Below, in pieces: positions 45,732-55,007 of a stretch of 64,000 bases of DNA. The translations under genes and the position numbers were made by a program. Position 1 is the stretch's first letter, and the number at the start of each line of letters is the position of its first letter. The stretch is from the NCBI GenBank assembly GCA_951406725.2, contig OX597815.1:111600001-111664000 (forward strand), in the 5' to 3' direction. The notes under the pieces are model-generated. The model was not told the DNA's origin. It saw only the letters and a list, made by a program, of their open reading frames with translations, and did no database searches. Source of the DNA: Octopus vulgaris (taxonomy: Eukaryota).

Positions 45732-45937
45732 ACGCTGATGAAAGGTAAACACATTGAAACTCGGGTCCGTGTGTATCATGAGTTGAAGACGGGGAGGATG
45801 ACTCCCCTTCACAAATACTGAGAGGACACAGATAGTGTGTCTATAGCCAGCTGGAGGAGATATCTTCCTGGGGCTACAAACTACAGTAGCATCCACCCTT
45901 AGGGGTTAGCCATATTCAAATGGCAAATATGCGTCAC
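45732..45937 (+). repeat. 206-bp direct repeat, left copy, beginning with a hammerhead (45732-45773)
   Basis: Near-identical to 50985-51190 (two substitutions seen); acg CTGATGA aaggt-aaac-acatt GAAA ctcggg TC cgt. Confidence 0.93.
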
Positions 45938-46304
45938 GATGTGTTACCGCTACTGTTTATAACTCGCTCTGAGATTTATCATTGTTTGATTTCACTTTTT
46001 CAATATCAGTGTCAATCGACAATGGAAAAAGTATATGTATTTGTGAAGGGAGCTGACTTCTCGTCGACAACCCTGATTATTCGTCTAGGGATCCCTCTTT
46101 CATCTGCGTTTTGAGAATTTTGCTGCCTTTTTGTTGAGTGAGTTCGTATTTTTTGTTCGTCGTTGTTTGTGTTACTCGTGAATTGAACAGTTGTCCGTTG
46201 TGTAACAGTAATTTTCGCCCTACGGGGCTGAAAATTCTGTGTTTAAACATTGTCATTACCTTCGAGGTAATTTTTTTAAAACATTTGTTCTCATAATTTG
46301 AGAA

Positions 46305-47605
46305 ATGGAGTTCGACTTGGCGTCGAGGAGTGACTTTCCCGTGATGGGAAGGTAAAAACGGAAGGCAATGAAATTAAACTGGTACCGCCGCAAGCGAAGG
46401 TACAGTTGTATACAAAATTTATAGCAACAAAGAAAAAAAAAATGGATGTCAAGAACGAGATGGTTGAAAAGTGCTTGTCCCCGGTGTGGGACAAAATTCG
46501 CCACATTGTTCGAGGTGCTCGCAGCGCTACCGTTGAAGCACATTTCGACTCGGCTGATGTGGCAAGAGAGGTGTCATCAATGACCTTGAAAAGTGAGGAT
46601 ATCATGTTGCTACCTTCGTATATGGGGAAAAGAACAGCCAAACTACATGTAGAGGATATACCAAGAGGGTATGATATAATGTGGGTAGCAGCGGTAGTCC
46701 TGCACAACGTAGAGCGGGAAGTTTCAATTCTGCAGATGAGAAGGAAAGAGGAGGTGTACTGGAAAGGACAAACGCTAGAACTCCTCGTTCAAGCAGAAAA
46801 TAAGATACTAGAAAACTTACCCGATAGGGTATTTAATGAGGAGGGAACTTCAATGAGAGTGTCAGTGGAGGGGCGCAGACCTGGGTGCTTCAAATGTGGC
46901 GAAAAGGGTCACGTCCGCTCAAACTGCATAAAAAAAAAGAAAATCAACGAAGCCCCTCCTCAAAGTGCTTCAAACTTATCAAGAAAAGGTGGAAATAGAA
47001 CCCAAGACTGCGACAAGGAAAGGAACCGAAACAGAAGATGAAAATAAACAGATGGAATATACACAGGTGACACACAAAAGAAAAAAAGATAACACCCTGG
47101 ACTCCTCTCCCCAAACAAAGAAAAAATCAGCAAACACCGCAGAGATACATACAAAACAAATTCCCCAGCCCTACCCCCACGGCACTGTATTCATTGGAAC
47201 ACAGTTCGCCAAGCCCCTCCCCATAAAACAAGATTTGAAAAAATTGATAAAAAAAATGAAAAGATTATAGCATTTGACGAGAAGAACGATAGGGTGTACA
47301 AGTATTTCAAATTTTCAAAATTTAAACTATTCAGTAAGTCTACAGACACAAAATCAACCACTCGCTTTGCAAAAATAAAGCAAGACGAGTGGAAGGAAAA
47401 AACACCACAAGAACATTTAAAGAATAATCTCATTAGAGATGTAACGAATGAAATACTGGAGGGTAAACTCATTATAACCCCGGCAACCACACCTACCCAG
47501 AGCCCGATGGCAACGCCGGTTAAGAGCCCTGCAGCTACGACCACAAGGGAGGAAGAAGGGGAAGCAGGCAGATTTAAACTGTCATGCTCCCTGTCCCAAC
47601 CGTAA
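46305..47605 (+). pseudogene. Tx1 ORF1 (gag-like, CCHC zinc knuckle), frameshifted
   Basis: CFKCGEKGHVRSNC in 46406..47041; continues in other frames at 46965..47270 and 47294..47605. Confidence 0.82.
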
Positions 47606-47632
47606 GTTTATTTATTTTTTCTCTCTCCGACA

Positions 47633-50600
47633 ATGGCAAAGCTGGGTTGTGTGAATGTGCGTGGAATGGGGTCGAAATGGAAACAAATTTGTTTCCTGAA
47701 CGACCTCACGATACACGGAGTGGACGTAGCTATTGTAACCGAGTCCAAGATGAACGGGGCCCAAGCGTTCTCGCCTCTTCTAAATGGTTTCGAGAAATTT
47801 ATATCTCCTAGCCGAGGAAGAGGAAGGGGCGTGGCAGTCCTTATCAGGAAGAGCTTGGACTTGCAGGTAAGTACTGTCTTTCTGGACCCAGAAGGCAGGC
47901 TGGTCGTTCTGGATGTGACCCACGTAAGTAAACAGTCCTTCAGGTTGGTAGCTGTCTACGCTCCGAATGAGTGTAGGCAGGCGGGTTTTTTTCGGAATCT
48001 GGAGCACTTTTTAGCGACGTCGAAAACGGTAGTCTTAGTAGGGGACTTTAACACTGTCCTTGAAGCGCGGGTCGACAGTGTTGGCTCAACCAATAGGAAG
48101 GGGAACCCTAGCCTCAAGGGTCTACTAGAGAGCTTTGATCTAGTGGAGCGTTATCGACTGGATGAGCCGAGCGTTCCACAGTGGACGTGGAGTAACAACG
48201 ACGGCTCACACAGATCGTATATAGATAGGATATTCGTTAGGAAAAGAGATAAGGATACGTTTAGTTATCCACAGTTTCACATTGTGCCTTACACGGATCA
48301 CAAATTTGTGACTTGTAGGGTGCAATTAGATAAGTGCCATAGACAGGGACCCGGGTACTGGAAGCTGAACAAGTCTATTTTGAATTGTGAAGACTTCCGT
48401 ACCCGGATTAAGGTGTTAGTACAGAGGGCATTGTGTGGCACCATCATTAACAATAGATGGTGGCACTCCCTCAAAAGAGCCATTCGTTCAGAGTCCATTA
48501 GATTTAGCAATCAGCTAAGGTTAGATAGGTCTAGGATAGAGGACGATTTAGTTAAGAATCTAAACGAGGCAATGGAAGCTGGCTCTGCATCCGGAGTGAT
48601 GGCGGCAAGGACGGTATTGTACCGTCACCTTAACTCCAAACACGAAGGTTGCAGAGTTAGAGCTAAGCTACGCGCTGGGAAACGAGAAGGTATTAACGTT
48701 GCCGGATGGGCCCGTCAAGCGGAGAGTCAGAGAGGTAACAAAGCTTCAATCAAGTCTTTAACTGACGAACAGGGACAAAAGATCTATGGACAAGAGGAGA
48801 TGCAAAAGTTTCTTCACCAGCATTTCGCCCGCGCGTTCGGGGGTGGTGTGGCGCCGGAGCGGGGGAGGGCCTTAAAGGACTTCCTAGCCGGCGGACCGCG
48901 GCTCTCGGGGAGTGAGGTGGAGTGCTGTCAAGGAGCGATCACTCCCGTGGAGATAGAGAGGGTACTGGCCGGATGCGCCGGGGAGAAGTCGCCGGAGTTG
49001 GATGGTCTGCCCTACGAGTTTTACCAAAGTATGCCGGACTTGTTCAGGGGAATATTGGCAGGCGTCTACGCGAACTGGCAGCAGAATGGGAGAATTCCCA
49101 GTTCTGTAAGCCGGGGTGTGGTGACGCTAATCCAGAAAGACCCGAGCAAGGGGGATAACATTAGTAATTACAGGCCCATAACTCTACTTAACGTAGAGTT
49201 AAAGATTTTGGCCAAGGTGTTGGCAAAAAGGTTGACGATTGTCGTGGAGAAACTTGTAGGGAAAGCACAGACATGTGCAATTCCAGGCAGGTCGATCCAG
49301 GACAATCTTCACCTTATACGCTACACCTTAGATAGGTTGGGTAAATTAACCGGCAAGGGCGGGGTAATGGTCCATTTAGACCAAAGTAAAGCGTTCGATA
49401 GGGTAGACCATAAGTACCTGGCGACGGTCCTCGAAGCGGCTGGACTGGGCCCTGAATTTCGCAGGTGGATCTCCGCTATGTATAGCGGCATCAAGTCCAC
49501 CGTCCAGATAAACGGTTACCTAACGGAACCGTTTTCGATCGAATGCTCTCGAGCCATTGCTGCGAAAGTTGGAGAGGCTTGGAAGTAACCCGGATGAGAT
49601 CGGAGGTGGGAGGACGGTTACTGCTTATGCGGATGACGTCACCCTCATCGTGTCCAATGGAAGGAAGGGCGGAGGTGGCACAGATGTTCATTGCATCTGT
49701 AATCACTTACCGCCTGACCGCTGTCCCTTGCCCCGATTCATGGCTTAGCAAGTTGGAGCGAATCCTTTTCCGCTTTTTGTGGAAGGGAGGAAAGCCACTT
49801 GTGAGGCGCTCCGTTTGCTGCCAGGAACCGTTAAAGGGTGGGTTAAGAATGCCTTGGTTGATGATGCGCAGGCATGCGTTGAGACTGAAGTATCTCTGGC
49901 ACCACCTGGAGGGTGATAAGGTGTGGAGGCCGCTGGCAGGGGAATTTTTCTCGAGACCGGCTTCCTTAGTGAATTTTAAACCCGGTCACATCAAAAGACG
50001 GAATCTGACTTTATGGCAAAAGGAGTGCCGACAGGCACTCACGCTGATCCACAAGGCGGGCAAGGCCGGCTGCGGAAATACCACCTCGGTATTTTATAGC
50101 AGGCTGGTAGAGGCAAAGAACGACGACGTCCTAGGAGGGGCTCTGGGGTTTGACGAAGACCAGCTTACCAACCTGTTTAAAAAAACTTTCAGGACGGGGT
50201 ATTTGGATAATTTCCAAAGATCCCTGGCCTGGCAGTGTTATAGGAATGCTTTACCTGTTCGCGAGAAGTTATCGCGGCACGGAATTTCAGTGCCACCGAC
50301 GTGTCCAAGATGCGGGTTGGACGATGAAACCGTCCAGCACGCTTTTGTACACTGTCGGAAGTTGTCAGACTTGATAAGTTACGCAGAACACGTGTTATCG
50401 CATCTGGGACGAGTACAGCTGTCGGCTGAGTCTATGATTAAGATGATACCGCCAACTGGACTCTCGAAGGAAGGTGAGGCATGTTTTCACTGCACGGTTG
50501 CAGTAGTAAAATAATGCATGTGGCGTACAAGAATGGAAGGAGTCGCAATAGGATCCTTTGTCTCAGGCCCCAGCTTACTCACTTACTTCAGATACCATCT

Positions 50601-50703
50601 GAAGAGCAAAATGGGGCTGGAAAAGAAGATCTTACCACGAGGTGTGTATGAAAAAAGATGGAAGGAAGTGGCAAAAAAGGTGGGTGTCAGAAACCCAGCT
50701 TAA
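47633..50703 (+). pseudogene. Tx1 ORF2: APE endonuclease + RT + C-terminal Zn finger, disrupted
   Basis: NVRG, VTE, VYAPN, GDFN, SYIDRI, TDH, GPGYWKLN, YRPITLLN, DQSKAFDRVDH; AYADD out of frame (49557..49748); CPRC..ETVQHAFVHC; internal deletions and a stop at 50514. Confidence 0.93.
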
Positions 50704-50981
50704 CTATGGATGGAGGAGAGGAAAGAAAAGCTGCGGGGTCTTATAGGTTGCCGGGGTTTAAAATATATCGGTAAGATCGCAAGTTAATGTAATGTTGTAA
50801 TGTTCTATTAGTCAATGCAAAGGACAATTTAAATACAAATTTTGTATAATGAATAATCCAAATATTATGGAAAATTTTTAATCGAACCACTTAACTGTTT
50901 TTTGTATGTATGTCTTGTATTGTCCTGCTATGTAATGATTTTATAATCGTAATAAAGAAATTCGTCGACGACCCTGATTGT

Positions 50982-51026
50982 CACACGCTGATGAAAGGTA
51001 AACACCTTGAAACTCGGGTCCGTGTG
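50982..51026 (+). ncRNA. Canonical type I hammerhead ribozyme, predicted cleavage after C51020
   Basis: cacacg CTGATGA aaggt-aaac-acctt GAAA ctcggg TC cgtgtg: intact core, 6-bp stem I, 5-bp stem II, quasi-palindromic stem III. Confidence 0.88.
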
Positions 51027-51186
51027 TATCATGAGTTGAAGACGGGGAGGATGACTCCCCTTCACAAATACTGAGAGGTCACAGATAGTGTGTCTATAGC
51101 CAGCTGGAGGAGATATCTTCCTGGGGCTACAAACTACAGTAGCATCCACCCTTAGGGGTTAGCCATATTCAAATGGCAAATATGCG

Positions 51187-51190
<4 letters not shown>
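50985..51190 (+). repeat. 206-bp direct repeat, right copy
   Basis: Matches 45732-45937; followed by (TA)n. Confidence 0.93.
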
Positions 51191-51229
<39 letters not shown>

Positions 51230-51329
51230 GTGTGTATGTATTTGGATTTATATGTAGATATATGTAGATATATATGCCCGTATATGTGTGTATATCTATA
51301 TGTACCTATGCGTGCGTAACTATATGAGT

Positions 51330-54050
51330 ATACTAGGAAGGACATAAGACTTATAGAATTCTTCGCTAACAAAAGTAATGAGATTGATGAATCCCTAGTA
51401 AGGAATAAATCAAATTTCACCCCATCAAAAGGAAGAAATAACTACCTTGACCAATACATTGATATCCTATCTAAATTTCCCCTTAGACGCAATACCAATG
51501 TTAGGCCAAACATTAACAAATCAGGGATGTCTGCATGTAAACGTATACAAAACGATCAAACAATAATAATTAAACAAGCAGATAAAGGTGGTGCAATTGT
51601 TATTATGGATACCGAATACTATAAGGATTTGGTTGAGGACCAACTGAAGGACACAACCTTCTATTGTGAAATACCCTCAATTATAGACCACCACATCATG
51701 AAAAAGATCAACAACCTGATTTCAAAACACTACAACTCACTTACCGATAATGAAAGAGACTACATCACCAATTTCGAACCAAAACCCAGTAACTTCTACG
51801 GCTTACCGAAAATACATAAATCAAAAGATATTCAACATGCAGTAAAAGAACAAGAAAGTGAGTACATAAAATTACTATATCCAAAAGACCTAAAACTTAG
51901 ACCTATTATAGCTGGTCCAGCATGCCCTACCCACCGTCTAAGCAATTTCATTGACAATTTTTTGAAAACACTATGTACTTACCCAGTTTCATCAGGGATG
52001 ACATCGACTTCCTGTCCCACCTTCCCAAAACAACAGAAACAAATTCCGTTTTACTAAGTTTTGATGTGGTAAGCCTCTACACCAATATTCCACACGATTT
52101 AGGAATAAAGGCGATTAAAATACTGGTTAGAAAAACATAGAGAAGTGATTCCCAGCAGATTCACAGTGCCATTTATATTAGACACAGTCAAACTTATTCT
52201 AGAAAACAACACATTCTTCTTCAATGGAAAGAATTACATCCAAATTAGAGGCACGGCGATGGGGACGAGGTTTGCTCCCGTTTACGCCAACTCTGTAATG
52301 GGATACTTAGAACAACAACTCTACCAAGAGGTGGAGGTAAACTATGGCACTGGATTTAGAAAGTATATTGAAAAGGCATGGAAGGGATACCTTGACGACT
52401 GCTTCATAATCTGGACAGAATCTCTAAATACTCTGGAAGAGTTCAATATCCTCCTGAACAACCTACACCCATCTCTCCAATTTACAAAGGAGATGAGTAG
52501 TACCAAATTACCATTCCTAGATATAATGGTAATTAAAAAGGACACCACCATCACCACAGACATATACTATAAACACACAGACACACATCATAACCTGAAT
52601 TTTAAGTCGTGCCATCCACCACATACAAAACGCAACATCCCATACTGCCTAGCCAGAAGAATTTGTACCATTGTAGAAGATGCAAATATCAGGAACAAAC
52701 GCCTAACAGAACTAAGAGAATATTTGCTCAAACAAAAATACCCATCTCTACATATAGAAAATGGCATACAGCGGGCTATAAAAATACCCATACAACAACT
52801 TAGGACAACCCAAAGAAGAGGAAAACAAGATCAAGTCATACCATTCATAGTGACACACAACTCATGTCACCAGAATATCTTCAGCATTGCCAAAGCAAAC
52901 CTACCAATCATTGCTCAAAGTAATGAATTAAAAGATATAATCACAGATCGAGCTATGGTTCTTAGTAAAAGACAGCCTAAAAACTTGAAAAAATTACTAA
53001 CAAAGGCAAAATTTGACCTTAGCAACAAAGACCAAACATTCACTGTATCTAAATGCAATGATAGCCGATGTGGCACATGCCAATTCATACATACCGGCCA
53101 ATATATAAACACAAAAACCGGGAAAATATTCACAAACGCGAATATGAACTGCAAAAGCAGAAATTTAATTTACTGCATTAAATGCAAAATTGTGAAGAAA
53201 TATATGTAGGTCAGTCGGGAAATATATTATATTTCCATTCTACAAATTACACAGCCCAAGTGAAATCAAAGGAAATTACACAGCCCAAGTGAAATCAAGA
53301 GGAAAATCAAAGTAAAAAGTATTTTATTGATAAATTCGAACCCAAGCTAAATAAGCAATAATAATAATACTTAGAGATACTACTTCTACTGCTACGACCA
53401 TGACCACTAACAACAACAACAATACTAAAGGTGATCAAGATGAAGATTGCAGGAAAATTATCTTATTTAGGGTTAAAAGTTCTATTGCCATCACCATCAC
53501 CACTAGCAACAATAATTAAGGTGCTGACAATGATGATGATGACAATTGAAATATAAAAATCCCTGACAAAGGCTATTTACAACATTTCTAAAAATAGCCC
53601 AACAATTGCTGCCTCGGCCAGGGTTAAGATACAGGACTCTTGACATGTTCAACAAAGCGTGACGCCTAAAACATTCAGCTTAAGTAATTGAGTGATGCTA
53701 CACACTGATTGGTCAGAATACAGTATGCAAAACCTAGCAATCTGGAGCCTACATAGGTGTATTTAAGGCACATATTTAACCATCTCGCTACAGTCAAAAA
53801 TTGTGAAGCATGACTGTCACCACCACTACATGAACCTGAAGATTGCATAATTTAATGCATGAAAGTACTAGTTCAAACAGAGTGAACATTTAACAGTCTA
53901 TTATTTTATTTTATTTTATTATATTATATTATATTATATTATATTATATTATATTATATTATATCATTATAAGATTGTAAATAAAACGTGAAAATCAGAC
54001 AAGGTTGGAATTCCTTTTATTAATATATTCTTCTATACACAATCACACAC
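51330..54050 (+). mobile_element. Penelope-like element (Neptune type), frameshifted, with 3' UTR
   Basis: ADKGGAIV, FYGLPKIHK, RPIIAG (51527..52057); GTAMGT, YLDD, LPFLDI, KCNDSRCGTC, NLIYCIKC (52145..53209); GIY-YIG domain internally deleted. Confidence 0.94.
53831..53875 (+). ncRNA. Minimal type I hammerhead in the Penelope 3' UTR/pLTR
   Basis: tgaac CTGAAGA t tgcat-aattta-atgca t GAAA gtac TA gttca. Confidence 0.85.
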
Positions 54051-54798: not shown

Positions 54799-55007
54799 TA
54801 TATGTTACATTACTCGGTAGTCAAGATAAAACTCTGAGTTTCAGATGCCGAAGTGGAAATCCACAACACCATCTCTTCGGTTATCTGGCTATTTGAAAAC
54901 GTTTTCAAATAGCCAGATAACCGAAGAGATGGTGTTGTGGATTTCCACTTCGGCATCTGAAACTCAGAGTTTTATCTTGACTACCGAGTAATGTAACATA
55001 TAGTATA
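54794..55007. repeat. Perfect 214-bp palindrome centred at 54900/54901, with an HHR-like motif in each arm
   Basis: 107-bp arms, no spacer. Plus arm: agataa CCGAAGA gatg-...-catc t GAAA ctcagag TT ttatct (54915-54977). Confidence 0.92.

Follow-up and report, generated by a model that had tools for sequence, protein, structure and literature searches.

What does a LINE recognise when it lies inside a ribozyme-bearing repeat? This question is raised by a 64,000-nt stretch of the Octopus vulgaris genome (contig OX597815.1, positions 111,600,001 to 111,664,000; the whole stretch is called the window here and coordinates refer to it), in which a defective, Tx1-type long interspersed nuclear element (LINE) of the L1 group (46079-50961) is located between two near-identical repeats that carry hammerhead motifs. 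Analysis of this locus and of the flanks of related copies shows that these are nested mobile elements, namely a LINE guest inside a retrozyme host, and that the LINE family inserts into retrozymes site-specifically and independently. The target site itself looks like a transcription start rather than a ribozyme, with the start in the window predicted at 46063.

A site-specific LINE inside a retrozyme

All features of the composite locus are on the forward strand. The upstream retrozyme part (45732-46078) comprises positions 1-347 of a 352-nt unit, is truncated at its 5' end and adjoins a TA/TG microsatellite; the downstream part (50962-51193) stops at unit position 209, the standard 3' end, against (TA)n. 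The near-identical direct repeat that an initial, sequence-only reading had noticed around the LINE is indeed present, with a length of 209 nt (45732-45940 and 50985-51193), mismatches at 45753, 45826 and 45938, and a spacing of 5253 nt. The target-site duplication (46061-46078 and 50962-50979) has one mismatch, and its 3' copy ends 8 nt before the CTGATGA motif at 50988; that reading had taken it to be 18 bp long, but the apparent family duplication is 20 bp, relative to which the window copy lacks 3 nt at the 5' junction. The 352-nt period, previously deduced by removing the LINE on paper, agrees with the period of natural empty tandems (e.g., L003; fetched loci are labelled in this manner throughout). 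A genome search with the 352-nt unit yielded 2399 first-look candidates, 40 of which were scored; empty-site units do exist, as most junctions in the 30 fetched unit loci are empty, and the LINE is present in L001, L004 and L023.

Flanks of this LINE family (hereafter family 1) were read at 40 scored 3' ends out of 167 candidates and at 40 scored 5' ends out of 197 candidates. The identical site is occupied at 37 of the 40 3' ends, including the window copy, one tandem and a copy in a retrozyme with a diverged hammerhead (L119), and the other three (L114, L117 and L123) lie elsewhere. At the 5' side, the site is used by 38 of 40 ends, of which two follow another LINE; of the remaining ends, one joins the unit at position 237 and the other is off target. 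The earlier suggestion that the family targets retrozymes is thus borne out, and the share of flanks in one repeat is well within the definition of a target-specific LINE (more than 20%) used in PMC4494074. Private variants of a locus are found in both copies of the duplication (the window and L093), and 5'-truncated LINE copies also have the duplication (L116, L119 and L125), the apparent length of which is 20 bp in a young subfamily and about 14 bp in an older one. In a comparison that left out off-target, tandem and 3'-damaged copies, the median difference between LINEs was 1.9% versus 7.0% for their targets in the young subfamily (14 copies; Mantel rho 0.13, p 0.21) and 2.7% versus 18.8% in the older one (19 copies; rho 0.10, p 0.21). 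Because LINE distances are uncorrelated with target distances, the insertions are independent and LINE-driven. Target types are interleaved along the LINE tree (13 changes, a count without a shuffle comparison), and B-type targets group weakly in the tree of LINE 3' parts.

The window LINE carries an open reading frame 1 (ORF1) remnant (46334-47041), with a CCHC zinc knuckle at about 46883-46927, and an ORF2 (47633-50703) with apurinic endonuclease (APE), reverse transcriptase and zf-RVT domains. The domain assignment made from the sequence alone was recovered in Pfam, with zf-CCHC (PF00098, above the cut-off) in ORF1 and Exo_endo_phos, RVT_1 and zf-RVT in ORF2; a CCHC zinc knuckle in ORF1 is a feature of the Tx1 clade. 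Protein searches with ORF2 returned homologues that bear no Tx1 family names. In L091, ORF2 is a single long open frame of 1144 codons, for which the closest solved relative is human L1 ORF2p (E 5e-64; R2 is found at E 4e-25). Other family copies are about 5.3 kb long; by comparison, the window LINE has lost 112, about 47 and 270 bp in three deletions, which are located at about 46350, 49545 and 49658. Its frames, including that of ORF2, are broken; this copy is dead. The LINE has no poly(A) tail and has an AATAAA signal at 50951-50956.

The host is placed among the retrozymes lacking long terminal repeats (non-LTR retrozymes) by its tandem units, which are non-coding, contain a type I hammerhead and, at 352 nt, lie within the expected range of 170-400 nt, in agreement with the unit size and hammerhead type given in PMC7229834. 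The host loci, often head to head, are partial tandems whose 3' ends border (TA)n and fall either at unit position 209 or at 252-256; they show the anatomy of non-autonomous Penelope-like elements outlined in PMC8557442, namely partial tandems, an inverted 5'-truncated arm, a tail of 30-40 nt and a (TA)n target. We read the host as a non-autonomous retrozyme that spreads in the form of Penelope-type insertions and is presumably mobilised by Penelope elements. The Penelope element beside the composite is not homologous to the unit, and translation of the upstream flank revealed no matching 5' part. Seven of the 78 arm 5' ends fall at unit positions 33-38, around the predicted cleavage site (p 4e-4 against a uniform distribution, for an interval chosen after the data were seen and with two of the seven ends being selected best hits), which hints at cleaved RNA as the template; at the predicted transcription start, the enrichment of retrozyme 5' ends is not significant (3 of 78, p 0.10).

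Several further observations concern the occupied sites. Different Tx1 families form trains at one regenerated site (L116, L134, L137, L172, L277, L285, L292, L294 and L295), and at least three Tx1 families have the retrozyme site in common. In L102 and L132, the 5' and 3' flanks come from different retrozyme subfamilies, the switch in L102 being 75-110 nt 5' of the LINE. L096 and L112 (G000:C7:109.53-109.54 Mb) are sister LINEs in the two arms of a single inverted retrozyme locus; their 5' junctions are unusual in that they fall at unit position 237 and at about position 44. A second retrozyme family, very diverged and built of a longer unit, is seen in L119 (7280-7700, reverse strand); it shares the promoter-like motif and has likewise received a family-1 insertion. 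Contigs labelled as three other organisms cover the unit and the LINE at a minimum of 85% identity, and the unit-LINE pair is probably shared with related species.

The target site as a predicted transcription start

Of 40 retrozyme flanks, 39 have the motif ATCA[GT][TC] at a distance of 57-62 nt 5' of the (A/G)TCG with which the duplication begins (three misses of the regular expression were corrected by eye, and six tandem, off-target or odd loci were left out), with a background of about 0.013 per 10 positions. Among the small nuclear RNA (snRNA) genes, all 19 U2 flanks read, from 48 listed genes, have the same motif at -57 to -61; of the 16 U1 flanks, from 42 listed genes, 14 have it at -56 to -59 (the misses include a low-scoring copy). 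An element about 60 nt 5' of +1 that is common to U1 and U2 is characteristic of snRNA-type promoters, in which the proximal sequence element (PSE) is expected at about such a distance from the start (PMC4494074); the core shared here is only 6 nt long. In the window, the PSE-like ATCAGT core is at 46005-46010, 58 nt 5' of the predicted +1 at 46063, and the 5' duplication would serve as the leader of the LINE RNA.

Additional evidence comes from a sister family (family 2), which is about 80% identical to family 1 in ORF2. Among 30 of its 3' ends read (of 40 scored), 20 are in retrozymes, 5 at U2 +1 and 3 elsewhere, and 2 are in tandem, behind a retrozyme-type duplication. All four full-length U2 junctions consist of the promoter, U2 +1 to +14, ATCGCTACGTGGTG and then the LINE, where ATCGCTACGTGGTG is a 14-nt foreign leader of the retrozyme type, the first bases of which, ATCG, correspond to the predicted +1. 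These four are all the genome matches of the junction pattern and represent two contigs and two promoter variants. With one change, the leader is identical to the first 14 nt of a retrozyme subfamily inhabited by family 2 (L283, L284 and L289); L292 retains part of a similar leader, and L286 differs from its own 3' duplication towards another subfamily. The simplest reading of the foreign leader at U2 is that the donor RNA began at the retrozyme +1, which suggests that the LINE RNA was made from the host promoter.

A set of twenty other copies, which have 93-97% identity in the C-terminal part of ORF2 but other 3' untranslated regions, is located outside retrozymes; some of these copies are arrayed in tandem, and the period is close to 5277 nt. 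For this set, 17 5' stretches were fetched and about 12 reach the junction; a TATA-like box lies about 30 nt before the duplication in five (L246, L248, L249, L253 and L255), and L253 has an additional 14-nt piece. These boxes suggest a wider preference for start sites, the starts being predicted ones. A search of Rfam found no family at 14 target stretches of these sister subfamilies.

Taken together, these data make it probable, in our view, that the retrozyme has an snRNA-type promoter and that the LINE inserts at the start and borrows this promoter. The host, a retrozyme with a 352-nt unit, a type I hammerhead and a probable internal snRNA-type RNA polymerase II (Pol II) promoter, has spread into (TA)n in the Penelope manner, as partial tandems and head-to-head pairs. 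The LINE would insert at the retrozyme transcription start by its own target-primed reverse transcription, the first nick being placed about 2 nt ahead of +1 and the second 14-20 nt further on. It would come to lie directly behind an intact promoter, with a host leader of 14-20 nt, and would probably be transcribed from that promoter. The duplication restores stem I of the downstream hammerhead, and this ribozyme could cleave read-through transcripts 59 nt past the LINE; the RNA could obtain its 3' end at the LINE AATAAA or by this hammerhead. Whichever 3' end is used, reverse transcription would start at the last base of the LINE, because no 3' retrozyme sequence reaches the U2 or off-target sites. 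Candidate sources of specificity are the endonuclease, RNA-DNA pairing and tethering to the initiation complex.

Several points weigh against this interpretation. The 39 motif-bearing retrozyme flanks are homologous and hence are not independent observations, and the exact +1 is a predicted position rather than a mapped start. The four U2 leaders are identical, compatible with a single capture event, and a leader is absent from the off-target family-1 copies L114 and L117. Although U1 has the same motif, none of the scored LINE ends was at U1 +1, which indicates that the DNA sequence (ATCG) matters as well. The LINE has its own AATAAA, and retrozyme sequence is absent from the 3' ends of the U2 and off-target copies, so that any role of the hammerhead would be conjectural. 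Finally, among 25 loci of one Penelope family, no autonomous element with sequence in common with the unit was found.

The leaderless copies and the lack of U1 insertions would also fit an ordinary sequence-specific Tx1 element, with an endonuclease that reads a short, ATCG-centred motif, an internal LINE promoter and an incidental overlap with the start site. This explanation, consistent also with the TCG/ATCG common to the targets and with the very uniform 5' ends of the LINEs, appears unlikely: a motif of 4-6 nt is insufficient for 37 of 40 matches in 2.8 Gb, U2 genes and retrozymes have little in common except the -58 motif and ATCG, the foreign leader begins precisely at ATCG, and the sister subfamilies lie behind TATA-like boxes in different sequences.

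More tentatively, the borrowing of the retrozyme promoter could be an instance of a general rule by which this LINE clade homes to Pol II starts, of the snRNA type in families 1 and 2 and of the TATA/initiator type in the sister subfamilies. The LINEs would be guided by the initiation complex or by open DNA at the start, would have no promoter of their own, and in retrozymes would obtain their 5' end from the host promoter and their 3' end from the host hammerhead. We offer this as a conjecture that could well be wrong; if true, an APE-type LINE would be directed to its targets by transcription initiation, in the manner of some yeast LTR elements.

Two groups of sister copies deserve separate mention. 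L220-L227, L234, L243-L245, L256, L258 and L259 belong to a young subfamily with many 1148-codon open frames, in which as many as nine copies follow one another in an array (period about 5277 nt); its target is repeated and has ATCAGT about 125 nt upstream. In L117, L229, L231, L232, L246, L248 and L249, the target is a repeated C27/C2 sequence with a TATA-like box, used by another subfamily and by one off-target family-1 copy; this sequence may be the start of a clustered gene family.

The hammerheads and the competing explanations

Each repeat had been reported to start with a type I hammerhead, a description that needs correction for the upstream copy. The downstream hammerhead (50964-51044) is intact, with an extended stem I, a near-palindromic loop III and a GUC cut predicted after 51020; its predicted fold forms stems I and II. 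The 3' duplication (50962-50979) is the 5' strand of the extended stem I, so that the downstream hammerhead is kept whole because the duplication rebuilds this stem. The upstream hammerhead (45732-45773, nominal cut after 45767) is damaged: the 5' truncation has removed the outer strand of stem I, stem II has a mismatch at 45753, and the predicted fold is not that of a hammerhead. Across 10 target variants picked by the analyst, the named hammerhead helices are 95.6% paired with 12 compensatory cells, a level reached in none of 500 shuffles. Loop III is palindromic or nearly so across the retrozyme subfamilies, which suggests cleavage as a dimer. Rfam gave no hammerhead match over either repeat copy, and none was among the 150 matches listed of 228 for the whole window; the hammerhead assignment accordingly rests on the core motif and the covariation.

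The two hammerheads had led to the proposal of a LINE-retrozyme composite, in which both ribozymes cut and the released RNA could circularise; in the form considered here, the Penelope machinery would copy the circle as one unit. Certain loci are suggestive in this respect: L103 and L112 have a full unit upstream, L124 and L113 contain truncated LINEs that lack a same-strand unit upstream, and sister LINEs occupy both arms of one inverted locus (L096/L112). In L102, about 75 nt of a different subfamily 5' of the LINE suggest a longer donor RNA, with later conversion as the alternative. Composite copying is nevertheless quite improbable, given that LINE and target distances do not correlate, that microhomology at the L115 and L124 junctions is compatible with deletion during LINE insertion, and that an RNA starting at +1 would carry a cap, with which ligation into a circle would be impossible; no locus required it. 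The doubly cleaved circle of 5253 nt proposed for the window is not supported, given the position of the predicted promoter between the upstream hammerhead and the LINE, because an RNA started at 46063 would exclude that hammerhead, which is damaged and has only microsatellite sequence upstream. At loci with two promoter-bearing units, a doubly cut RNA could arise.

It is still less probable that the sequence or structure of the ribozyme is the targeting signal. In most subfamilies, the hammerhead core lies at a fixed 27-28 nt from the LINE 3' end, and the very diverged hammerhead family of L119 is targeted as well, but in L119 the promoter-like motif, too, is present at an unchanged distance, and the U2 +1 insertion sites are without a ribozyme. 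Because the sister family uses the same kind of site at these ribozyme-less positions, the ribozyme, which the sequence-only reading offered as a candidate target, can hardly be what the LINE recognises. Chance insertion or an assembly artefact has a negligible probability, since, for all the abundance of the retrozyme (the 2399 first-look candidates), the junctions recur on many contigs, the repeats differ by three mismatches and empty-site forms are found in contigs from separate sequencing runs.

Known site-specific LINEs and the neighbourhood of the locus

It is already known that Tx1 elements target other transposons, such as Tx1D by Tx1L and Mariner-N4_AMi by the crocodilian Tx1-Mar (PMC4494074, where co-transcription from flanking DNA is raised as a possibility), and U2 genes (PMC4640811). 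As far as these sources describe them, Tx1L and Tx1-Mar resemble the octopus family in that an APE-type animal LINE prefers another mobile element as target, whereas the present target is a hammerhead retrozyme and the insertion is at a single base that coincides with a predicted snRNA-type start. Keno and Utopia, non-LTR elements specific for U2 genes, have a 3' flank that begins with U2 nucleotide 39 (PMC4640811); family 2 likewise inserts in U2 genes, but at +1 rather than before nucleotide 39, with duplication of +1 to +14, leaves the whole U2 sequence without its promoter, and has the retrozyme as the main target. If homing to start sites holds, it would bear on the switching of target specificity, in this case between retrozymes and U2 within one family.

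NeSL-1 and CRE/SLACS, in spliced-leader genes, and R2, in 28S ribosomal DNA, are site-specific LINEs with a restriction-like endonuclease that target host genes and are thought to be transcribed from the host gene promoter. The octopus LINE, in contrast, is of the APE type and appears to be served by a selfish retro-element's promoter; the ribozyme is part of the target, 3' of the LINE. Insertion of R2 in 28S rDNA is also treated in PMC4494074.

In descriptions of metazoan non-LTR retrozymes (PMC7229834; bioRxiv 10.64898/2026.07.22.740005), units of about 350 nt are repeated in tandem, contain a type I hammerhead and are linked to Penelope-like elements. The word Tx1 is absent from both sources, and the passages found there describe no retrozyme promoter; unlike the retrozymes published there, the host units in octopus are dispersed, short partial tandems with inverted arms. 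Retrozyme transcription being unexplained in these papers, the motif identified here would be a candidate promoter for an invertebrate retrozyme; an snRNA-type promoter has been reported for newt satellite 2, as cited in PMC2220036. A recent octopus repeat annotation (PMC13282606) includes L1-Tx1 families, with ribozymes and targets unmentioned in its main text, and a figure in PMC4494074 lists Tx1 families with 'satellite' and U5 targets. We found no paper on a Tx1 element that targets retrozymes or U2 +1, in a search to which Repbase, supplements and most subscription papers were outside the scope, so that the arrangement may have been briefly annotated before. For site-specific LINEs, a ribozyme retro-element that is parasitised in this manner would be a new target class, one in which several Tx1 families compete for, and stack at, one base.

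Downstream of the composite, a Penelope-like element with a zinc-finger linker (51320-53990, forward strand) includes a minimal hammerhead of its own near 53830-53873. Its family is very abundant, with 10171 candidates and many open frames of 775 codons, and the 3' ends bordering (TA)n are of two kinds, separated by about 35 nt; it is a possible mobiliser of the retrozyme, despite the lack of common sequence. Further downstream, an Rfam match to mir-9 (54865-54936) scores barely above the cut-off and equally on both strands, and forms the centre of a long perfect inverted repeat, which is more likely an inverted insertion junction than a microRNA.

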